A DNA stretch of 64,000 bases from Croceibacterium sp. (GCA_035626815.1 DASPMY010000030.1:1903-65902); one strand, 5' to 3'; numbered from the stretch's first letter, positions 45,770-54,313 are shown. Notes: a model not told the origin generated them from the sequence alone. Program-made: numbers and translations.

Positions 45770-47400
45770 GCGGCCAGCTCGGCCCGCGGCAGCGCCTGGC
45801 CCCTGATCAGGTCGGCGGCCTTCTCGCCGATCATGATGCACGGCAGGTTGGTATTGCCGCCGGGCACCGTCGGCATCACCGAGGCGTCGGCGACGCGCAG
45901 GCCCTCGACCCCGATCACGCGCAATTCCGGATCGACCACCGAGCGTGTCCCCATGCCCATCGCGCACGTGCTGGTCGGGTGCTGCGCGCAATAGCAGGTG
46001 GCGCGGACGAACGCGTCGAGCGCGTCATCGCTCTGCACCGCCTCGCCGGGCATCCGCTCGCTCGCCAGCAGGTCGCCCATCGGCGGGGTGTTGTAGATCC
46101 GCCGCGCCGTCCGGATCGCGCGGCGCATCTGCTCGCGGTCGGCTTCCTCGGCCATCAGGTTGAGCGTCACCGCGGCGAGCTCGCGCGGGTCGGCGCTCTT
46201 CAGCTCGACCCAGCCGCGGCTCTCGGGATGGAGCTGGACCACCCCGGCCCAGAACACGTGCTCCTGCACCGCGCGGATGCCGGGGAACCACGGCGCGGCG
46301 TCGAAGCGGATCGGGTTGACCATGATCTGCAGGTCGGGCCGCTCGAGGTGCTCGGCGGTGCGGATCACCACGTTGCAGGAATTGACCTGCGTCGCCATCG
46401 TCCCCCTGCCGGTCAGCGCCCAGCGCGCGGTGTTAAGCAGGATGCGGTCCCACCGGAGCTGGTTGAGGAAAGTGACCGGCTCCCGCGCATTCCATTCGAG
46501 CGAGGCGGTCGGGTGCTCCTGCAGGTTGCGGCCGACGCCGGGGCTGTCGTGCACGACGGAGATGCCATGATCCTGCAAGTGGGCGGCCGGACCGACGCCC
46601 GAGAGCATCAGCAAGTGCGGCGAGTTGTAGGCACCGCCCGAAACGATCACCTCGCACCGCGCGCGCAGCACCCTCGGCTGGCCGCCATGGTCGATCTCGA
46701 CGCCGACGCAGCGCTTGCCCTCGAACACCAGCTTGCGCACCAGCACGCCCGAGCGGACGTCGAGGTTGCGGCGCCCCATCGCCGGCTTGAGGTAGGCGGT
46801 CGCGGCGCTGACCCGGCGGCCCTGTCGGTCGACAGTCTGCTCGCCGCGGGCGAAGCCTTCGGGGCGCTCGCCGGCGAGGTCGTCGCTGGTCGCGAACCCG
46901 GCGGCCTCGGCGGTCGCCATCATCTCGTCGTGGAGCAGGTGCGCGGAATCGATCGGCCGCACGTGCACCGGGCCGCCCTGGCCGTGCCACTCGCTCTCCC
47001 CGCGCCACGAATCCTCGGACTTGCGGAAGTACGGCAGCACGTCGGCGAACGACCACCCGGCGGCGCCCATCTGCGCCCACTGGTCGTAGTCCTTGGGGTG
47101 CCCGCGCATCGCGAACATGCCGTTGATCGAGCCCGACCCGCCGATCACCCGCCCGCGCGGCAGCGGCATGCGCCGCCCGTCGAGGTGCGGCTCGGGCTCG
47201 GTCCAGTAGGTCCAGTTGAACCGCGGATCGGGCATCGCCTTGAGGAAGGCGAGCGGCATCCTGAGGTAGAGGTGGTCGTCCCGCCCGCCCGCCTCGAGCA
47301 GCAGCACGTTGGCCCGTGAATCCTCGCTCAGCCGCGCGGCGACGACGCAGCCCGAGCTGCCCGCGCCGACGACGATGTAGTCGAAGCTCTCGCCAGCCAT
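45766..47400 (-). CDS. GMC-family FAD oxidoreductase (choline dehydrogenase-like)
   Basis: 'FDYIVVGAGSSGCVVAARLSED', 'GGSGSINGM' and C-terminal 'LRVADASVMPTVPGGNTN'. Confidence 0.9.
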   Translation of the reverse strand: MAGESFDYIVVGAGSSGCVVAARLSEDSRANVLLLEAGGRDDHLYLRMPLAFLKAMPDPRFNWTYWTEPEPHLDGRRMPLPRGRVIGGSGSINGMFAMRGHPKDYDQWAQMGAAGWSFADVLPYFRKSEDSWRGESEWHGQGGPVHVRPIDSAHLLHDEMMATAEAAGFATSDDLAGERPEGFARGEQTVDRQGRRVSAATAYLKPAMGRRNLDVRSGVLVRKLVFEGKRCVGVEIDHGGQPRVLRARCEVIVSGGAYNSPHLLMLSGVGPAAHLQDHGISVVHDSPGVGRNLQEHPTASLEWNAREPVTFLNQLRWDRILLNTARWALTGRGTMATQVNSCNVVIRTAEHLERPDLQIMVNPIRFDAAPWFPGIRAVQEHVFWAGVVQLHPESRGWVELKSADPRELAAVTLNLMAEEADREQMRRAIRTARRIYNTPPMGDLLASERMPGEAVQSDDALDAFVRATCYCAQHPTSTCAMGMGTRSVVDPELRVIGVEGLRVADASVMPTVPGGNTNLPCIMIGEKAADLIRGQALPRAELAA

Positions 47401-47447
47401 TCCTGCTCGCTAACGATCGTTACGATCGCTGGCAAGGCGGGCGGGCG

Positions 47448-48872
47448 CTAGAGCGGGCGGTACGACAGCCGCGGTGGCGCGTCGGGCGCTGCGGCGAGCG
47501 TCCCGGCGCGCGATCCGCCCGCGGCCCGATACAGCGCGATCCGGGCGAACAATTCCTCCTGCGCCGCCAGCACCTGGGCGTCCTCGGCGTCGGTCAGCAG
47601 GTCCTGCGCGTCGAGCACGCTGCCGAGATCCTGCTCGCCCTCGATGTAGCGCAAGTTGGCCAGCCGCGCGGTGGTCCCGGCCTCGGCGACGACCGCGTCG
47701 AGCAGCCGCGCCCGCTCGGCCGAGCGGTCGATCGCGCTGCGGGCATCCTCGGTCTGCTTGAGTGCGGCGAGGATTGCCAGGCGATAGCGCTCGACCGCCT
47801 CGACCTGGACCGCCGAAGCGTAAGCGAAATCGCCCTCGAGCCGTCCGCGGCTGAAGATCGGCGCCAGCAGCGCCGAGCCGAGCGTGACGCTGCGGCCGAG
47901 CGAGCCGGTCAGCAGGTCGGCGACCCCGCCGAGCCCGACCGAGAGTTGCGGAAAGAAGCTCGCCCGGGCCGCGCGCACGTCGCCCTCGGCCGCGGCGATC
48001 AGGGCTTCGGCGGCGGCGATGTCGGGCCGTGCCGCCAGCAGCACCGCGGGCGGCGGCGGGGCCAGCGCCGGCCGCGCCAAGTCGCCCAGCCGGCCCGGCG
48101 CCACGGCGAACGACGGGGCCTCCTCGCCCGCCAGCAGCGCCAGCGCGGTGCGGGTCTGATCGAGCGCTTCGGCGAGCCGCGAGCGCTCGGCGCGCAAGTC
48201 GAGCAGGCGGATCGACTGCAGCCCGAGGTCGACGCGCGTCGCCGCGCCTTCCTCCACCCGCACGCGGATGATCCGTTCGAGCTCGACCGCGCGGGCGATG
48301 CTGGCATCGAGGATCTCCATTCGCCGGGCCAGCGCCGCGCGCTGGACAAAGGCCGCGGCGACGTCGCTCTCGACCGCCAGCCGCACGGCGTCGCCTTCGA
48401 GCTCGGCGGCGCGGGTACGCGCCAGGGCGGCGCCGCGCTCGGCCCTGAGCTTGCCGAACAGGTCGAGGTCGAGCTCGATGTCGATCTGCGCGAACGCCTG
48501 GCGGAAATCGGGCAAGGCGCTGCCGAGCTGCCGCTCGCGGCTGCCGCTGGCGCTGAGCGACACGTCGGGCAGGACGGACTGGCGCGCGCTCCGCAGCAGC
48601 GCCGCCGCCTGCGCGACCCGGGCTTCGGCGATGCGGACGTCGGCATTGCGCTCCAGCGCGCGCTCGGTCAGCGCGGCGAGCTCGGGCGAGGCGAACAGCG
48701 CGCCGAGCGGTGCCGCCGGCACGTCGCCTCCCTCCGGCGCCGCCGCGCTCCATTCGGCCGATTCCAGCACCGGCGCCGGCTCGAGGCGCAGCTCGGGCGC
48801 GCAGCCGCCCGCGGCCAGCGCGGCCGTCGCAACTGCCGTGGCGAACCGGCTGCCCGAAACGACTGTGGCCAT
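47448..48872 (-). CDS. Outer-membrane efflux lipoprotein, NodT/OMF family
   Basis: Lipobox 'LAAGGC'. Two OEP repeats. 474 aa. Divergent from the CvaA-like gene. Confidence 0.85.
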   Translation of the reverse strand: MATVVSGSRFATAVATAALAAGGCAPELRLEPAPVLESAEWSAAAPEGGDVPAAPLGALFASPELAALTERALERNADVRIAEARVAQAAALLRSARQSVLPDVSLSASGSRERQLGSALPDFRQAFAQIDIELDLDLFGKLRAERGAALARTRAAELEGDAVRLAVESDVAAAFVQRAALARRMEILDASIARAVELERIIRVRVEEGAATRVDLGLQSIRLLDLRAERSRLAEALDQTRTALALLAGEEAPSFAVAPGRLGDLARPALAPPPPAVLLAARPDIAAAEALIAAAEGDVRAARASFFPQLSVGLGGVADLLTGSLGRSVTLGSALLAPIFSRGRLEGDFAYASAVQVEAVERYRLAILAALKQTEDARSAIDRSAERARLLDAVVAEAGTTARLANLRYIEGEQDLGSVLDAQDLLTDAEDAQVLAAQEELFARIALYRAAGGSRAGTLAAAPDAPPRLSYRPL

Positions 48873-48995
48873 GGCCCGGCGCTAGCAGCCAAGCGTTAAG
48901 ATTGGTTGAGCGGGTGTCCCGCAGCGGGACGCGCAAGCGCTTGGTTCACGGCCGGTTTACCTCCTTTTCAGGCTTCGCGCCTATGCGCGGGGGCG

Positions 48996-50228
48996 ATGGC
49001 AGAAGCCCTGTTCCGCAACCAGGTGATCGAGGAGGGCCGCAACCGGCTGACCGGCACGGTGATCGCCGCCGTGCCGCCGACCTCGCGGCTGTACACGCGC
49101 CTCGTCGCGGGCGTAGCGGCGCTGCTCGTGCTGTTCCTGTTCCTCGGCAGCTACACGATGACCGCCGACGTGCGCGGGATCGTCGCCTACGACGCCGGCG
49201 TCGCCCGGGTCTACCCGCGCACCGCCGCCGAGATCGGCGCGATCCACGTCCGCGAGGGGCAGAACGTCGCCAAGGGCCAGCCGCTGGTGACGCTGGCGAT
49301 CGCCCAGGGCCAGGGCGGCATGACCGGCCAGCTGAGCCAGATCGCCACGCAGGACAGCGAGCTGACCCGCCAGCTCGACCTCGCCGCGGCGCAAGCGGGC
49401 TCCGACGTCGCCGCGCTCGGCGAGCAGGCGGCCGGCTACGCGGCGATGATTGGCTCGCTCGAGCGCCAGCGCGCGCTCGCCGCCGACCAGATCCATCTCG
49501 CGGAATCGGCCGCCCGGCGCGCCGAGCGGCTCGCCGCCGAAGGCGCCGGCACGCAGCGCCAGGTCGAGGACAGCCGCTCCGAGCTGCTCGCCCGGCGGGC
49601 CGAGTTCGAGGCGCTCGGCGAGCAGCTCATCGCCCAGCGCAGCGCGTTGCGGGCCAACGAGGCCGAGCGCGCCCGGCGGCGGCTCGAAGCCGAGCGCGCG
49701 CAGTCGGTGCTGCAGGGCCAGCGCGCCTCGCTGGCCGAGCAACAGGCCCAGCTGGCGCGGACCGACCGGCTCGTGCTGACCTCGCCGATCGACGGCGCGG
49801 TCGGCGACGTCAGCCTCGAGATCGGCCAGCAGGCGAGCCCCGAGCGGTCGATCGTCTCGGTGATCCCGACCGACAGCCGGATGGAGATCTGGCTCTACGC
49901 TCCCAGCCGCGCGGTCGGCAACGCCCGCCCGGGCCAGCGGGTGCGGCTGCAGTTCGACGCCTTCCCGTACCAGAAATACGGCTCGGGCGTTGGCGTCGTC
50001 ACCGCCGTCGCCCGCGTGCCGACCGTGCCGGGCAACCTCGACCCGGGCCTGCGGATCGACGAGCCGGTGTTCCGCATCCGCACCCGCATCGTCAGCCTCT
50101 CGCCCGGGTCGAAGATCGACCTCGCCGCGCTGCGCCCGGGGATGACGCTCGGCGCCAAGCTCCAGCTCGAGCGGCGCAGCCTGTGGCAGGTGCTGCTCGG
50201 GCCGGTGTTCGAGGCGCTCGGGCGATGA
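48996..50228 (+). CDS. HlyD-family membrane fusion protein, CvaA (colicin V secretion)-like
   Basis: N-terminus 'LFRNQVIEEGRNRL' followed by a TM segment, coiled-coil middle, and C-terminus 'RPGMTLGAKLQLERRSLWQVLLGPV'. All three parallel CvaA. The internal ATG (MAEALF) was preferred. Confidence 0.85.
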   Translation: MAEALFRNQVIEEGRNRLTGTVIAAVPPTSRLYTRLVAGVAALLVLFLFLGSYTMTADVRGIVAYDAGVARVYPRTAAEIGAIHVREGQNVAKGQPLVTLAIAQGQGGMTGQLSQIATQDSELTRQLDLAAAQAGSDVAALGEQAAGYAAMIGSLERQRALAADQIHLAESAARRAERLAAEGAGTQRQVEDSRSELLARRAEFEALGEQLIAQRSALRANEAERARRRLEAERAQSVLQGQRASLAEQQAQLARTDRLVLTSPIDGAVGDVSLEIGQQASPERSIVSVIPTDSRMEIWLYAPSRAVGNARPGQRVRLQFDAFPYQKYGSGVGVVTAVARVPTVPGNLDPGLRIDEPVFRIRTRIVSLSPGSKIDLAALRPGMTLGAKLQLERRSLWQVLLGPVFEALGR

Positions 50229-52366
50229 GCGCGATGCAATGGCCGTGGCACCGTGGCGTCCGGCCGATCCTGCAGACCGAGGCCGCCGAATGCGGGCTCG
50301 CCTCGCTGGCGATGATCGCCCGCCATCACGGCCACCGGGTCGACCTGTCGGGCCTGCGCCAGCGGTTCCCGACCTCGATCAAGGGCATGACGCTGCGGCA
50401 GATGATCGACGTCGCCTCGGACCTCGAGCTGTCGGCGCGGCCGGTGCGGCTCGAGCCCGACGAGCTCGGCCAGCTGCGGCTCCCGGCGATCCTCCACTGG
50501 GACCTCAACCACTTCCTGGTGCTCGAGAAGGTCGAGCGCGGCGCGGTGTGGCTGCTCGACCCGGCGAACGGCCGCCGGCGGATGACGCTGGCCAAGTTCG
50601 GGCGGCACTTCACCGGCGTCGCGCTCGAGCTGATCCCGACCGCCGAGTTCCGCCCGATCGAGGCCCGGGTGCGCACCCGCCTGTCGGACTTGTGGAGCCG
50701 GCTGACCAATTACCGCTCGGCGTTCGTCCAGGTGCTGGTGCTGTCGCTGATCGTCCAGGTCACCGCGCTGGTCGTGCCGTTCTTCATCCAGCTGGTGATC
50801 GACGAGGGCGTCAACCAGGGCGAGGCGAGCTTCCTCACGCTGCTGCTGGTCGGCTTCGGGATGATCTACGCGCTGCAGGCGGTCACCCGCGGCCTGCGTA
50901 GCTGGGTCACGCTGTGCCTCGGCCAGTCGCTCAGCTTCCAGCTCGCCGGCAACGTCGTGCGCCACATGCTGCGGCTGCCGATGGGCTACTTCGAGCGCCG
51001 CCACGTCGGCGACATCCTCTCGCGCGTCGGCTCGATCCAGCCGATCCAGTCGCTGCTGACGCGCGGGGTGGTCGATTCGGCGATCGATTCGACGCTGCTC
51101 GTGGCGACGCTGCTGGTGATGCTGGCGATCAGCGTGCCGCTGACCGCGATCGTGTTCACCTGCACGCTCGCCTACCTCGTCGTCTCGCAGGTGGTCTATC
51201 CGGCGATCCGCGCCCGGGCGGAGGAGGAGATCGTCGCCCGCGCGCAGGAGGAATCGTTCCAGATGGAATCGCTCCGGGCGATGCGGGCGATCAAGCTCCA
51301 CGGCTTCGAGACGATGCGCGAGAGCGGCTGGCGCAACCGCTATGCCGAGGTCATCACGGCGACCTACAAGTCCGAGATGCTGAGCCTCAAGCTGAGCTTC
51401 GCCGAGGACCTGATCTTCGCCGCCTCGTTCCTGCTGACGGTGTATTTCGGCGCGCTGGCGGTGCTCGACCAGCAGCTCACCGTCGGGCTGCTGCTGGCGT
51501 TCCTGGCCTATCGCAGCAGCTTCGCCTCGAGCGCCACGTCGCTGGTCCGCCAGTGGCAGAAGTGGCGCCTGCTCGGGCTCCATCTCGAGCGGCTGTCGGA
51601 CATCGTCGGCGAGAAGAAGGAGCTGCTCGCGGCGACCGCGCGCGGCGGCCAGCGGGGAAGCGCGCCGGCGATCCGCGCGGTCGACCTGACGTTCGCCTAC
51701 GATCCGGCCGAAAGCCCGATCCTCGACCGGGTCAGCTTCGAGATCCCGGCTGGCGGCCTGGTGGCGATCGTCGGCCCCTCGGGGGCGGGCAAGACCACGC
51801 TGATGCGCCTGCTGCTGGGCCTGCTGACCCCGCAAGCGGGCACGATCGACATCGACGGCTCGCCGCTCGGCCCGGCAAGCATGGCGCACTGGCGCAGCCG
51901 CATCGGCGCGGTGATGCAGGACGACTACCTGCTGTCGGGCACGCTGGCCGACAACGTGAGCTTCTTCCATCCGCAGCCGGACCAGCGGCAGGTCGAGGCC
52001 GCCGCGCGCTTCGCCCGCATCCACGACGACATCGTGCGCATGCCGATGGCCTATCACAGCCTGATCAGCGACATGGGCGCGGCGCTTTCCAGCGGCCAGC
52101 GCCAGCGCATCCTGCTCGCCCGCGCGATGTACCGCGACCCCGACGTGCTGGTGCTCGACGAAGGCACCGCCAACCTCGACGAGCACACCGAAAGCCTGAT
52201 CGCGCGGGGCATCGCGGCGATGCCGATCACGCGGATCGCCATCTCGCACCGTCCGGCGCTGGTCGCCTACGCCGACGTCGTGCTCCACGTCGAAGGCGGC
52301 AAGGTCGAGCGCGTCGAGCACCGCGGCCTCGGCCGGCTCCGCCCGCTCGACGCGCGGAGCGCCTGA
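50225..52366 (+). CDS. Peptidase-C39 / ABC transporter, CvaB-like bacteriocin-processing exporter
   Basis: ATGA overlap with the upstream stop. The C39 motifs 'QTEAAECGLASLAMI' (catalytic Cys) and 'LHWDLNHFLVL' (His) are intact. Six TM segments. Walker A 'GPSGAGKTT', signature 'LSSGQRQR', Walker B 'VLVLDEGT'. Confidence 0.92.
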   Translation: MSAMQWPWHRGVRPILQTEAAECGLASLAMIARHHGHRVDLSGLRQRFPTSIKGMTLRQMIDVASDLELSARPVRLEPDELGQLRLPAILHWDLNHFLVLEKVERGAVWLLDPANGRRRMTLAKFGRHFTGVALELIPTAEFRPIEARVRTRLSDLWSRLTNYRSAFVQVLVLSLIVQVTALVVPFFIQLVIDEGVNQGEASFLTLLLVGFGMIYALQAVTRGLRSWVTLCLGQSLSFQLAGNVVRHMLRLPMGYFERRHVGDILSRVGSIQPIQSLLTRGVVDSAIDSTLLVATLLVMLAISVPLTAIVFTCTLAYLVVSQVVYPAIRARAEEEIVARAQEESFQMESLRAMRAIKLHGFETMRESGWRNRYAEVITATYKSEMLSLKLSFAEDLIFAASFLLTVYFGALAVLDQQLTVGLLLAFLAYRSSFASSATSLVRQWQKWRLLGLHLERLSDIVGEKKELLAATARGGQRGSAPAIRAVDLTFAYDPAESPILDRVSFEIPAGGLVAIVGPSGAGKTTLMRLLLGLLTPQAGTIDIDGSPLGPASMAHWRSRIGAVMQDDYLLSGTLADNVSFFHPQPDQRQVEAAARFARIHDDIVRMPMAYHSLISDMGAALSSGQRQRILLARAMYRDPDVLVLDEGTANLDEHTESLIARGIAAMPITRIAISHRPALVAYADVVLHVEGGKVERVEHRGLGRLRPLDARSA

Positions 52367-53082
52367 TGAGCGAGATCCCGCCGCTGGCCCTCAATCCCGA
52401 GCTCGACATCGACGCGCTGGCCGTGGCCTATCGCGCCCACGGCCGCATCCGCATCCAGCGCCTGCTCGGCGAAGGCGCGCCCGAGCTCTACCACCACCTC
52501 GAGGGCACCGAGCACTGGATCCAGCTGGTCAACAAGCAGCGCGGCGCGCACGAGCTGCCGCTGGCCGACTGGCACGCGCCGCGCTCGCGCCGGCGGACGG
52601 TGCTCGAGCGCGAGATGTACCAGCGGGCGCGCGACGGCTTCCAGTACAGTTATGCCGCGCTGCGCGTGCCGCAGCAGGGCGAGAGCACGCCCGACCCGGT
52701 GCTCGCGGCCATCGCCGAGCTGATGCGCGGCCCGGCGATGGTGGCGATGCTCGAGGCCGTGACCGGGATCGCCGCGCCGCGTTTCACCGACGGGCAGGTG
52801 ACCTCCTACGGCCAGGGCGACTTCCTCACCGGGCACGACGACGATGTCGTCGGCTCGCGGCGCCAGGCGGCGTTCGTCTACGGGCTGACGCCGCAGTGGC
52901 GGCTCGAATGGGGCGGCCTGCTGCTGTTCCACGAGCCGGGCCAGGTCGAGGTCTCCGGCCTGGTGCCGCAGTTCAACACGCTCGATCTGTTCTCGGTGCC
53001 GCGCTACCACAGCGTCAGCCAGGTGACCCGCGCGGCGCCGCGCCGGCGCTATTGCGTGACCGGCTGGCTGTCGACGCCCTAG
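52366..53082 (+). CDS. 2OG-Fe(II) oxygenase (prolyl-hydroxylase-like superfamily)
   Basis: TGATG overlap with the ABC gene. Candidate facial triad 'GHDDD' ... 'PRYHSVSQV', and a basic 'RRRYCVTGW' that may bind 2OG. Confidence 0.7.
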   Translation: MSEIPPLALNPELDIDALAVAYRAHGRIRIQRLLGEGAPELYHHLEGTEHWIQLVNKQRGAHELPLADWHAPRSRRRTVLEREMYQRARDGFQYSYAALRVPQQGESTPDPVLAAIAELMRGPAMVAMLEAVTGIAAPRFTDGQVTSYGQGDFLTGHDDDVVGSRRQAAFVYGLTPQWRLEWGGLLLFHEPGQVEVSGLVPQFNTLDLFSVPRYHSVSQVTRAAPRRRYCVTGWLSTP

Positions 53083-54029
53083 ACGGCGGTCGAGCTGGAG
53101 CTGCGGACCTTGATCTCGACCTCGATCGCGCACTCCATCGGCCTGGTCAGCAGCGGCCTGGCGATGCGCGGGTCGAAGAAGTCGCGCAGGATCGGCGGGC
53201 GCCACGCGGCGAAGTAGAACTCGGGGTCCTCGGCCACCGTCTCGTTGGCCGTCAGGCGCAGCTCGTCCTTGCGGGTGACGTGCTCGACGACGCACCACGC
53301 ATGGGTGATCCCGGCGCTGCGCAGCGCGTAGCACCGGTGGTAGCCGTTCTGCAGCAGCACGCGCTTGCCGCTCCTAACGCCGCTGACGAAGTTGGAGCCG
53401 AACCCGACCGAAACGCCGAAGAACGCCGCCGCCGGACCGGGCAGCTCGAGGTGGCCGATCTCGTGCGGCCGCAGCAGCCGGGGCGAATGCTCGCGGAAAT
53501 CGCTCGACGGCGAGGTGAACTGGTAGCGGTTCGACGCCAGCCGCCGGATGCTGACCGGGGGCAGCTCGCGCTCGGCCGGGAGGCAGAAGCGGAACAGCGC
53601 CGACGGCGGCGGCGCAGGCCCGAGCCGCGCGGCGATGGCGCCCGAGAAGCCGTTCTCGACGTGAAGCTGCGAGACCACCAGCTTGTCGAGCTCGACCAGC
53701 TCGATGGTGTACGGCAGGTCGTCGAACGTCGCCCGGAACCACGGGTTGCGCTCGAGCTCGCCGGCGAGCCGCGCCAGGCGCCGGTCGAGCGGTCGGCAGT
53801 CGATCGTGTCGGCGATGCCCGCCTCGGCCTGCTCCAGCTCGTAGTAGTAATCGTTGGCCTCGCGCCATTCGGCGGTCAGTTGCCGCGCGTCGGCCGCCTC
53901 GCCGCCGATCACCTTCGAGCGGTGGAACGCCAGGTAGTCGCGCAAGCTCGGCTGGCCGAGCAGCCACACCATCGGCACGGGCTCGGCGGCTGAGGGCTCA
54001 GGCCGGAGCGGGGCGGGCTCGATGTACAT
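53079..54029 (-). CDS. 316-aa protein of unknown function encoded directly after the precursor peptide; weak ParB/Srx-like 'NGYHR..A....G' motif
   Basis: Long open frame. No confident family match from memory. The C-terminal third has 'GKRVLLQNGYHRCYALRSAGITHAWCVV', reminiscent of the ParB/sulfiredoxin 'DGHHR' motif. The start codon is uncertain (54029 or an ATG 57 nt downstream). Confidence 0.55.
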   Translation of the reverse strand: MYIEPAPLRPEPSAAEPVPMVWLLGQPSLRDYLAFHRSKVIGGEAADARQLTAEWREANDYYYELEQAEAGIADTIDCRPLDRRLARLAGELERNPWFRATFDDLPYTIELVELDKLVVSQLHVENGFSGAIAARLGPAPPPSALFRFCLPAERELPPVSIRRLASNRYQFTSPSSDFREHSPRLLRPHEIGHLELPGPAAAFFGVSVGFGSNFVSGVRSGKRVLLQNGYHRCYALRSAGITHAWCVVEHVTRKDELRLTANETVAEDPEFYFAAWRPPILRDFFDPRIARPLLTRPMECAIEVEIKVRSSSSTAV

Positions 54030-54066
54030 GGCGAAGGCTTAGCAGGGCCGCGTTACCCAATAGTAA

Positions 54067-54088
54067 GGGCGGGGATCGCGCCCCGCCC
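54067..54088 (-). terminator. GC-rich stem-loop after the precursor gene (possible attenuator or partial terminator)
   Basis: The minus-strand RNA would read GGGCGGGG-CGCGAU-CCCCGCCC followed by UUACUAUU. It lies between the precursor stop (54122) and the next gene (54029). Confidence 0.45.
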
Positions 54089-54121
54089 CCCAGGTCGGTC
54101 CGCGCCGGCGGCGCGAGCCGC

Positions 54122-54313
54122 TCAGCAGTAGCCACGCGAGCCGTGGCCCTTCGACTTGCTCTTGGACTTCGACTTCGACTTGCACTTCGACTTCGACTTG
54201 GACTTCGACTTGCTCTTCGAGCCGCCACACGACGGCGGGGTCGGCGAGCAGTGACGGCCGCGGCCGCCGGCGCCGTAGACCAGCTCGAGTTCGTTGAGGT
54301 TCAGATCGCGCAT
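54122..54313 (-). CDS. 63-aa double-glycine-leader precursor peptide (microcin/RiPP-like) with a (Ser-Lys)n, Cys-containing cationic core
   Basis: GGGGAGAA RBS. The leader 'MRDLNLNELELVYGA' is position-for-position similar to the colicin V leader 'MRTLTLNELDSVSGG'. The core is 'GGRGRHCSPTPPSCGG(SK)6CK(SK)5GHGSRGYC'. Adjacent to a C39-ABC/HlyD/OMF exporter. Confidence 0.8.
   Translation of the reverse strand: MRDLNLNELELVYGAGGRGRHCSPTPPSCGGSKSKSKSKSKSKCKSKSKSKSKSKGHGSRGYC

Follow-up and report, generated by a model that had tools for sequence, protein, structure and literature searches.

A self-contained gene cluster for the putative cleavage and export of a polycationic Ser/Lys-repeat peptide

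Gene content of the cluster

The window analysed here is a 64,000-nucleotide stretch of Croceibacterium sp. DNA (GCA_035626815.1 DASPMY010000030.1:1903-65902). It contains a compact unit of six genes encoding a NodT outer-membrane factor, a HlyD adaptor, an ABC exporter with a C39 peptidase domain, a 2OG oxygenase, a 316-residue protein (hereafter U316) and a short peptide (Table 1). The six genes, which a sequence-only reading had proposed to form a self-contained microcin/RiPP-like cluster, were all confirmed. They are flanked by a GMC oxidoreductase and an IclR regulator. The GC content of the cluster is 0.72-0.756 against 0.66-0.70 in the flanks and is thus slightly high rather than identical to the surroundings.

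Table 1. Features of the cluster, with positions counted from the first nucleotide of the window.
Position	Strand	Feature	Size
47448-48872	-	NodT-type outer-membrane factor, divergent from the exporter operon	474 aa
48873-48995		Divergent intergenic region between the outer-membrane factor and adaptor genes; presumed promoters	123 bp
48996-50228	+	HlyD/CvaA-type membrane-fusion adaptor (alternative TTG start at 48906)	410 aa
50225-52366	+	ABC exporter with N-terminal C39 peptidase (domain at about residues 15-139, nt 50267-50641)	713 aa
52366-53082	+	2OG-Fe(II) oxygenase, translationally coupled to the ABC gene	238 aa
53079-54029	-	U316, conserved soluble protein of unknown function	316 aa
54065-54090	-	GC-rich hairpin between the peptide stop and the U316 start; terminator- or attenuator-like	10-bp stem, 6-nt loop
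54122-54313	-	Peptide ORF	63 aa
54122-54268	-	Core peptide plus stop codon: Gly/Arg start, Cys-bounded SPTPPS loop, (Ser-Lys) repeats, C-terminal GYC	48 aa
54149-54211		TCGAAG hexanucleotide array within the core	10.5 copies
54269-54313	-	Double-glycine leader (cleavage site inferred)	15 aa
54321-54327	-	Shine-Dalgarno-like GGGGAGA, 7 nt upstream of the peptide ATG	7 nt

The export components were assigned by profile searches. The outer-membrane factor matched Pfam OEP (1.6e-35) and TIGR01845 outer_NodT (211.9 bits, cutoff 210.05). The adaptor matched HlyD_3, HlyD_D23 and type_I_hlyD (TIGR01843, 110 bits), and its homologues align from the ATG rather than from the alternative TTG. The exporter matched Peptidase_C39 (116 bits, profile positions 5-131 of 133), ABC_membrane and ABC_tran. 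The C39 domain is catalytically complete, with the motifs QTEAAEC (Q17, C23), NHFLVL (H96) and DPANG (D112) all present. The adaptor and ABC genes overlap as ATGA, and the ATG of the oxygenase overlaps the ABC stop as TGATG. The oxygenase matched PF13661 (1.9e-20) and PF13640 (4.8e-15). Its putative iron-binding residues H157-x-D159 and H215, read from the motifs GHDDD and RYHSV, lie in the region aligned with OGFOD1 and Tpa1, and R226-228 was likewise assigned by sequence.

A hairpin follows the peptide gene. In our scan a GC-rich hairpin was reported within 110 nt after the peptide stop in all 34 genome loci scanned, with different stem sequences and often a U-rich tail, although no shuffled control was included. 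The consensus terminator scan did not call the hairpin of this locus, and no canonical terminator was found. No sigma-70 promoter was found either, although the divergent intergenic region was not included in a promoter scan.

Conservation of the peptide and its partner genes

The peptide, MRDLNLNELELVYGAGGRGRHCSPTPPSCGGSKSKSKSKSKSKCKSKSKSKSKSKGHGSRGYC, carries the leader MRDLNLNELELVYGA. Its core has a net charge of +15, 1 hydrophobic residue and 4 Cys. According to our analysis the ORF is far beyond chance. The same leader plus a cationic core sits next to the U316 homologue in 36 of 36 genome loci with enough flank. Across all related loci retrieved (labelled L with a number) with at least 450 nt upstream, a strict pattern found it in 85 of 95, and five of the ten misses carry the peptide elsewhere in the locus (L018, L033, L098, L111 and L112). 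The general leader is MRDLxxxELxxVYG(A/G). In 82 distinct leaders L-12, E-8 and G-2 are invariant, L-7 (78 of 82) and V-4 (80 of 82) are nearly so, and A or G occupies -1, in agreement with the double-glycine consensus. In the corresponding 82 distinct leader DNA sequences, variation at codon position 3 is three times that at positions 1 and 2 (0.454 against 0.15 and 0.14). The cores are 24% Gly, 22% Ser and 20% Lys, with a median charge of +12 and almost no hydrophobic residues. This composition holds in 84 distinct cores, whereas the core sequence itself is variable.

The conserved module consists of peptide, U316, adaptor and exporter, which co-occur in two different gene orders (convergent and co-directional) and across U316 identities of about 41-80%. 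The exporter is 59-84% identical in Sphingomonadales-type loci and about 40% identical in co-directional loci. The sequence-only reading had listed the oxygenase and the dedicated outer-membrane factor as components of the unit, but both are branch-specific accessories. A homologue of the outer-membrane factor was found in 37 of 51 convergent-type loci and in none of 31 co-directional loci, and the oxygenase was present in 22 of 118 loci. Neither is the system a local oddity; it belongs to a large family found mainly in Sphingomonadales and in other Alphaproteobacteria (Defluviicoccus, Geminicoccales). Four of the loci come from cultured strains, namely Novosphingobium sp. MW5, N. aquae AS3R-12, Sphingomonas parva 17J27-24 and S. 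oligophenolica S5.1. Only 1 of 8 peptides looked up is annotated, and we found no database entry or published description of a characterised equivalent.

The oxygenase occurs only where the core has an SPxPP-type motif. In the U316 tree this holds in every case, and in the genome set the motif was found in 19 of 19 loci with the oxygenase against 2 of 18 without it (the SPQGP of L033 being counted as the motif). L004 sits inside the oxygenase-bearing clade, has lost the gene and has CPPPPPC instead. This association is not corrected for phylogeny, and the motif also occurs without a detected oxygenase in L027, L051, L054, L057 and L111. Other branches carry different enzymes next to the same peptide and U316 pair. 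A non-orthologous P4H + Sel1 oxygenase sits in L028 and L052, whose core has CAPPPC, a P4H-like gene lies near L030, and a FemAB-family gene was found in 11 co-directional loci at varying positions. Rare fusions of U316 to methyltransferase and GT25 domains also exist.

U316 itself matched no model in Pfam, NCBIfam, PADLOC or PHROGs, and 14 members gave no Pfam hit even at E <= 10. It has at least 451 homologues and 1,089 representatives at 50% identity (E <= 1e-3). No transmembrane segment was found, and the pI is 6.1. The invariant residues are mostly polar or charged (E69, Q121, S175, D177, R179, N213, R223, H231, R232, E256, R277, D283). A confident AlphaFold model (pLDDT 93.7) has no significant structural neighbour. 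Only a local segment at residues 223-261 (NGxHR..L..G.THAPC) aligns with the ParB GERR helix and strand, as seen in Foldseek against PDB and BFVD, in a profile search against PDB sequences and in hhalign. The invariant G229, H231 and R232 align with GERR in Spo0J and Noc (E about 0.2; hhalign P = 0.007 over 34 columns). The link is statistically weak everywhere, with best Foldseek E-values of 0.16 (PDB) and 0.035 (BFVD), an hhalign probability of 5%, a TM-score normalised to the query of <= 0.22 and only 40-85 aligned residues with consistent superposition (longer alignments have rmsd > 8 A).

Proposed function and alternative readings

We posit that the locus makes a 63-aa precursor, tailors it in the cytoplasm, removes a colicin-V-type leader and exports the rest, a reading that we consider as a whole somewhat more likely than not. 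The C39 peptidase would cut after Gly-Ala (positions -2 and -1), and the core of roughly 48 residues would then pass in one step through the ABC exporter, the HlyD adaptor and the NodT channel. In leader cleavage and export of this peptide we have high confidence. The released product would be a non-amphipathic, disordered polycation with a Cys-bounded Pro-rich loop at its N-terminal end and a C-terminal Cys. That the peptide is modified at all, as the sequence-only reading had suspected, gains indirect support from the variable enzymes and is more likely than not, although no modification has been observed. The oxygenase most likely hydroxylates proline in the SPTPPS loop, which we favour by a narrow margin. 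U316 is regarded as the obligatory, class-defining partner, which most likely binds the precursor and modifies the Ser/Thr + Lys/Arg repeats using an anionic, nucleotide-type co-substrate. Whether it is an enzyme is evenly balanced, and Ser phosphorylation, although the leading guess, is unlikely taken on its own. The invariant arginines could also bind the acidic leader rather than a nucleotide. Outside the cell the polycation most likely acts on anionic surfaces of competitors, like a bacteriocin. The antibacterial role remains an assumption and is tentative. No immunity gene was recognised, which is unusual for a bacteriocin locus (no small membrane protein is present, and the gene adjacent to the structural gene is U316), and a peptide with no hydrophobic residues is unlike any characterised microcin.

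Alternatively, the peptide might be an unmodified class II microcin-like toxin, with U316 serving as a cytoplasmic immunity, antitoxin or chaperone protein that holds the polycation, or its acidic leader, until export, and with the oxygenase as an optional decoration only. U316 sits directly downstream of the structural gene, where microcin immunity genes usually lie, no other immunity candidate is present, and a +15 peptide would be expected to bind nucleic acids inside the producer. U316 is also mildly acidic (median net charge -4) and shows no significant match to any enzyme family. On the other hand, it is far more conserved than the cores it would neutralise (44-80% identity with 18 invariant residues, against cores conserved only in composition), has no membrane segment, is much larger than typical immunity proteins and is too weakly charged for an electrostatic sink, while variable enzymes cluster around it and some are fused to it. 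We consider this reading unlikely. A chance ORF in GC-rich repeat DNA, with the exporter handling some other substrate, is effectively refuted. The locus is 70-75% GC, so that spurious ORFs abound, the ORF contains a hexanucleotide array, and the exact peptide is absent from the protein collection. However, the leader is conserved in more than 90 loci with a coding pattern of substitution, a ribosome-binding site is present, and a 63-aa gene is called at this place on three independent metagenome contigs.

It is also conceivable, though again improbable, that the exported polycation is not a weapon but serves the producer outside the cell as a matrix, adhesion or mineral-binding peptide, as a metal binder or as a secreted signal like other double-glycine peptides. 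Conservation in composition only, as in structural low-complexity peptides, and the lack of a recognised immunity gene would fit this view, as would the HGHD or HSRS repeats of some branches (L067, L068, L095), which are suggestive of metal binding. Most of the metagenome loci come from JGI Ga- and C688-series samples, which presumably represent soil, sediment or mat habitats. The Ser/Lys repeats, a hydroxylase and methyltransferase fusions are reminiscent of silaffin chemistry. Yet no sensor kinase or receptor gene is conserved next to the module, non-amphipathic polycations such as protamine and epsilon-polylysine are themselves antibacterial, and nothing here links the locus to biofilm or mineral genes.

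More speculatively, U316 might found a new class-defining family of RiPP enzymes, built around a divergent ParB/sulfiredoxin-type nucleotide-binding core, that iteratively modify the Ser/Thr-Lys/Arg repeats of double-glycine-leader peptides, for example by poly-phosphorylation. The products would be a previously unknown class of secreted, heavily modified polyionic peptides, bacterial counterparts of silaffin-like or protamine-like molecules, further decorated by proline hydroxylation, FemAB-type aminoacylation of Lys, methylation or glycosylation, depending on the lineage. We regard this as doubtful. If our preferred reading is right, a widespread family of secreted bacterial peptides, apparently mostly from soil and freshwater Alphaproteobacteria, has been missed; gene callers usually skip these peptides, and their partner protein matches no known family. 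The reading would extend the microcin export paradigm to hydrophobic-free polycations, add an unstudied protein fold to peptide maturation and offer a natural set of variable tailoring enzymes acting on simple repeat scaffolds. This is of interest for new antimicrobials, for peptide engineering and for understanding competition among sphingomonads.

Comparison with known systems

In composition only, the cargo resembles silaffins, protamines, histatins and epsilon-poly-L-lysine, which appear to be hydrophobic-free polycations of eukaryotic or non-ribosomal origin with unrelated biosynthesis. Silaffins in particular appear to have Ser/Lys/Gly repeats that are heavily phosphorylated, hydroxylated and methylated. 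With the ParB/sulfiredoxin-fold enzymes SerK (a free serine kinase), SbnI and sulfiredoxin, U316 appears to share a local strand-helix-strand segment with G-x-H-R (GCHR in sulfiredoxin, GERR in ParB). These enzymes use the fold to bind ATP or ADP and phosphorylate a small hydroxyl or sulfinate acceptor (PMC12704722), and the cargo here is rich in Ser. However, U316 has no Pfam ParBc (PF02195) hit, no significant structural or profile match and about 250 further residues with no detectable relatives.

The oxygenase has the double-stranded beta-helix domain with an HxD...H triad in common with prolyl hydroxylases and with hydroxylases of RiPP pathways, and its best solved relatives are OGFOD1 (5.6e-6), Tpa1 and PHD2. 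It differs in its small size, in an N-terminal half that matches no Pfam or NCBIfam model and in its presumed substrate, a small secreted peptide. The NHLP/Nif11-type RiPP export systems (TIGR03796/TIGR03797/TIGR03794), which are also C39-ABC export systems for modified peptides in Gram-negative bacteria, provided the best-scoring NCBIfam models for the exporter (NHLM_micro_ABC1) and a scoring model for the adaptor. The scores are nevertheless far below the family cutoffs (474.6 against 853.3, and 54.6 against 156.2), the peptide matches no NCBIfam model, the leader is of the short ColV type rather than an NHLP or Nif11 domain, and there is only one ABC gene.

Colicin V and class II microcin secretion (CvaC precursor, CvaA, CvaB, TolC) shares with this locus a 15-residue double-glycine leader, an ABC exporter with an active C39 peptidase, a HlyD-type adaptor, an outer-membrane channel, a small ribosomal cargo with Cys near the C-terminus and a compact organization. 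The ColV leader, probably MRTLTLNELDSVSGG, would match the leader described here at about 10 of 15 positions. While the sequence-only reading had described class II microcins as known mainly from Enterobacteriaceae, they are now reported as widespread, from work in Enterobacteriaceae and gut microbiomes (PMC12219008). In contrast to colicin V, the cargo is a Ser/Lys/Gly repeat peptide rather than a Gly/Ala-rich microcin, a dedicated NodT factor replaces the shared TolC, a 316-aa partner protein accompanies the peptide, tailoring enzymes vary between branches, and the producers are Alphaproteobacteria.

Gene content of the locus and its conservation

The six ORFs of the cluster lie where the sequence-only reading had placed them, and their coordinates and family assignments are listed in the table. 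The residue set of the ABC protein is that expected for an active double-glycine peptidase. The adaptor and ABC genes overlap as ATGA, the ABC and oxygenase genes overlap as TGATG, and the oxygenase gene converges with that of the 316-aa protein (U316) with a 4-nt overlap. The flanks encode a GMC oxidoreductase and an IclR regulator. The GC content of the cluster (0.72-0.756) is slightly above that of the flanks (0.66-0.70), with the highest values in this part of the window (0.74-0.756) found in the exporter half. Locus L001 (Croceibacterium; loci numbered L001 to L038 are from genomes) appears to share the IclR-side neighbour, judged only from a similar antisense ORF, and the insertion site may therefore be conserved there.

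Coordinates of the features of the cluster and of related loci
Location	Coordinates	Strand	Feature	Evidence or remark
Window	47448-48872	-	Outer-membrane factor	Pfam OEP; NodT subfamily, 211.9 bits, just above the cutoff of 210.05
Window	48996-50228		Adaptor	HlyD_3, HlyD_D23, type_I_hlyD; homologues align from the ATG at 48996
Window	50225-52366		ABC protein	Full-length Peptidase_C39 match (116 bits), ABC_membrane, ABC_tran; Q17, C23, H96 and D112
Window	52366-53082		Oxygenase	PF13661, PF13640
Window	53079-54029	-	U316	No match in Pfam, NCBIfam, PADLOC or PHROGs
Window	54065-54090	-	GC-rich hairpin	Follows the peptide stop codon; found by folding
Window	54122-54313	-	Peptide	Shine-Dalgarno-like GGGGAGA 7 nt upstream; Ser-Lys tract is a TCGAAG array of 10.5 copies; no match in Pfam, NCBIfam, PADLOC or PHROGs
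Window	47000-50500		Exporter half of the cluster	Highest GC in this part of the window
L013	8984-9178	-	Second kind of double-glycine peptide	Between U316 and the oxygenase
L021	5229-5411	+	Second kind of double-glycine peptide
L018	5095-5280		Peptide gene	Novosphingobium aquae AS3R-12
L018	6161-7861		Transposase-like ORF, 566 aa	Between the peptide gene and U316 (about 8001)
L028	5395-6375	-	P4H-type oxygenase with a Sel1 repeat	Between U316 and the ABC gene
L052	5388-6368	-	P4H-type oxygenase with a Sel1 repeat	Between U316 and the ABC gene
L052	3006-5249	-	747-aa protein	No Pfam match

The sequence-only reading had named absence of the short ORF from homologous clusters as a ground on which its interpretation would fail, and the peptide passes this test. 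A search with a U316 alignment returned 38 genome loci, most of them from Sphingomonadales (Novosphingobium, Croceibacterium, Erythrobacteraceae, Sphingomonas, Allosphingosinicella and Sphingopyxis), with Defluviicoccus and a Geminicoccales MAG also represented. All 36 loci with usable upstream DNA contain a short ORF that begins MRDLxxxELxxVYGAG and continues into a basic Ser/Lys/Gly-rich tail, and eighty further metagenome loci show the same thing. Overall, 85 of 95 loci with at least 450 nt upstream have the peptide within 1 kb on the same strand, and five of the ten misses have it elsewhere in the locus. In 82 distinct leader DNA sequences, M-15, R-14, L-12, E-8 and G-2 are invariant, L-7, V-4 and Y-3 are nearly invariant, and position -1 is Ala or Gly, while DNA variation at codon position 3 is three times that at positions 1 and 2. 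These are the key positions of the double-glycine leader, and the leader of colicin V appears to be closely similar. The possibility that the peptide ORF is spurious was rejected on this basis. Public annotation largely misses these genes, as only 1 of 8 exact peptide sequences is present in a collection of 15 billion proteins, where it is labelled hypothetical. A 63-aa gene is nevertheless called at this place on three independent metagenome contigs that carry the identical locus, and no variation in repeat number was seen among these contigs.

A tblastn search of the six window proteins against all loci revealed two architectures. In the Sphingomonadales type (51 loci), peptide and U316 converge on (oxygenase)-ABC-adaptor, with a divergent outer-membrane factor. 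In a more distant type (31 loci, U316 about 41-55% identical), peptide, U316, adaptor and ABC are co-directional and no outer-membrane factor is found. The invariant module is thus peptide + U316 + adaptor + ABC. The oxygenase, which we had considered as part of this conserved core, is present in only 22 of 118 loci and was excluded from it. In L018, from the cultured strain N. aquae AS3R-12, the transposase-like ORF (possibly IS66-like) may indicate that the operon is disrupted.

Other accessory genes appear instead of the oxygenase. A FemAB-family protein (PF02388, 7.7e-35) occurs in 11 co-directional loci at varying positions, accompanied in five of them (L089, L090, L099, L100 and L107) by an unknown 222-aa protein. 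All the cores of these 11 loci where a peptide was found are Gly/Ser/Lys repeats (mostly GSK-type, GHGK in L107), and none was detected in L089. By analogy with peptidoglycan Fem enzymes, this suggests aminoacyl-tRNA-dependent addition to Lys side chains. A P4H-type oxygenase with a Sel1 repeat, not orthologous to that of the window, occurs in L028 and L052, in L052 with a 747-aa protein alongside it, and a related gene lies near L030. Rare, distant U316 homologues are fused at the N-terminus to a methyltransferase-like domain (P0208, 518 aa), in one case also with a GT25 glycosyltransferase domain (P0206, 730 aa).

A GC-rich hairpin was reported by our scan within 110 nt of the peptide stop in all 34 genome loci scanned, with stem sequences differing between lineages and often a U-rich tail, although no shuffled control was run. 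It resembles the attenuators that may follow structural genes in many bacteriocin operons, and is probably an attenuator that sets the ratio of precursor to enzyme. Simple consensus scans around the peptide found no sigma-70 promoter and no terminator.

The cargo peptide and the oxygenase

Across 84 distinct cores the composition is Gly 23.7%, Ser 22.2%, Lys 19.8%, Arg 6.9%, Cys 5.7%, His 4.2% and Pro 4.1%, with a median length of 43 residues, a median net charge of +12 and a median count of hydrophobic residues of 1. Composition is conserved, while sequence is not, and the repeats include SKSK, KKSK, GSKG, SKH, RSHS, TDKK and GGSSSGGGKR. Most Sphingomonadales cores begin with a short Gly/Arg stretch, followed by a Cys-bounded loop that often contains prolines, and end in Cys, or in an aromatic residue plus Cys. 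In all, 61 of 84 cores have a Cys in the last three residues. The core of the window (48 aa) has a net charge of +15, 4 Cys and one hydrophobic residue. This is unlike characterised class II microcins and also unlike amphipathic cationic peptides, and in composition appears to be closer to protamine, polylysine or silaffin. Some branch cores (L067, L068, L095 and L107) are rich in His or in Gly-His-Tyr, for example HHGHSKSKSRSRSKSHSH, GHDHGHDHGHDH and GGGHGKGGGYGYGGG, which suggests metal binding, or a likeness to glycine-rich antifungal peptides. A second kind of double-glycine peptide lies in the related loci L013 and L021. The two sequences, MRELSTNELTLVSGAGAGCGCSPMPPAKAGKGNNGFGNG... and MRDLHDFELKLVSGAGSSSCPPSKNNNGYGNG..., are Gly/Asn/Pro-rich and not polycationic, and may represent a second cargo of the same exporter.

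The closest solved relatives of the oxygenase are OGFOD1 (5.6e-6), Tpa1 and PHD2, all prolyl hydroxylases, and the alignment covers the region that holds H157-x-D159 and H215. In the genome set the oxygenase co-occurs with an SPxPP-type core motif in 19 of 19 loci, against 2 of 18 loci without it (Fisher's exact test, 1e-8, not corrected for phylogeny; the SPQGP of L033 was counted as the SPxPP type). Ordered by a U316 tree, the oxygenase-bearing loci form one main clade plus separate lineages (L013, L031 and L033), each of which has the motif, while their neighbours without the oxygenase have other loops. Inside the main clade, L004 has lost the oxygenase and has CPPPPPC. The reverse does not hold, since L027, L051, L054, L057 and L111 have the motif with no oxygenase detected. 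The non-orthologous P4H genes beside Pro-loop cores (L028 and L052 with CAPPPC; L030) add independent support. We infer hydroxylation of proline in the loop with moderate confidence.

The partner protein U316

The U316 family is large, with at least 451 close homologues, 1,089 representatives at 50% identity with E <= 1e-3, and 266 with E <= 1e-30. Every one that carries a source name is called 'hypothetical protein', and none has a Pfam domain. The protein is soluble (maximum 19-residue hydropathy 1.36, median pI 6.1, median net charge -4). The absence of a hydrophobic segment speaks against a membrane immunity protein, and a charge of only about -4 against a strongly acidic sink for the polycation, and both ideas were dropped. 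Across 98 sequences down to 35% identity, 18 residues are invariant, most of them polar or charged (E69, Q121, S175, D177, R179, N213, R223, H231, R232, E256, R277 and D283). An initial AlphaFold model from 14 sequences was too weak in the C-terminal half (pLDDT 69), whereas the 98-sequence alignment gave a confident model (pLDDT 93.7, pTM 0.88). Foldseek found no significant neighbour of this model in PDB (best E 0.16) or BFVD (best E 0.035), with TM-scores normalised to the query of at most 0.22, so that most of the protein has no detectable structural relative in the libraries available.

Both top lists are nevertheless dominated by ParB, Noc, KorB, sulfiredoxin, Atu1540 and phage ParB/Srx proteins, with well-superposed alignments covering about 40-85 residues. 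Sequence and profile searches of U316 against PDB gave only E >= 0.1, but the profile search independently picked Spo0J (0.19), Noc (0.2), SbnI (1.2) and free serine kinase (1.7), all over the same segment. An hhalign comparison with a ParBc profile built here aligned U316 228-261 (NGxHRAyALRxxGxTHAPCvv) with the ParB GERR helix and the following strand, yet the alignment was short and of low probability (P = 0.007, probability 5%), and we therefore treat it as a lead and do not assign U316 to the ParB/Srx family. The lead matters because the ParB-CTPase fold is used as an ATP-binding catalytic module in SerK, SbnI and sulfiredoxin (PMC12704722), and because the one constant feature of the cores is Ser/Thr next to a basic residue. 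Invariant arginines are unlikely to contact a polycation; they would suit an anionic co-substrate, or alternatively the acidic leader.

Inferred mechanism and relation to known systems

The locus encodes a complete, translationally coupled peptidase-exporter, adaptor and channel set, together with a conserved double-glycine cargo gene and an obligatory partner protein, to which branch-specific enzymes are added. We infer that the leader is cleaved after Gly-Ala at -2/-1, that the core is exported in one step and that its Cys residues fold oxidatively outside the cell. Hydroxylation of Pro by the oxygenase, a U316-dependent modification or hand-over step, and action as a polycation on anionic targets are likewise inferred. 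Sphingomonads carry glycosphingolipids in place of LPS, which could give intrinsic tolerance to an LPS-directed polycation and would explain the missing immunity gene. This is speculation, and it does not cover the non-sphingomonad branch.

Our literature searches found no description of the peptide family, of U316 or of the module. Recent work that widens class II microcins concerns Enterobacteriaceae and gut microbiomes and does not mention Sphingomonadales, Alphaproteobacteria or cationic peptides (PMC12219008). The comparative evidence is strong that this is a widespread, unannotated system. It is not an NHLP/Nif11 system, because scores are far below the cutoffs. It fits the RiPP pattern of leader plus core plus co-encoded enzymes, although in the absence of mass spectrometry no modification has been seen. 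The locus works like a class II microcin or ColV export system and conforms to that family in its leader, peptidase, adaptor and channel, while an immunity gene is not evident. The export logic is known, whereas the cargo type and the obligatory partner family are new.
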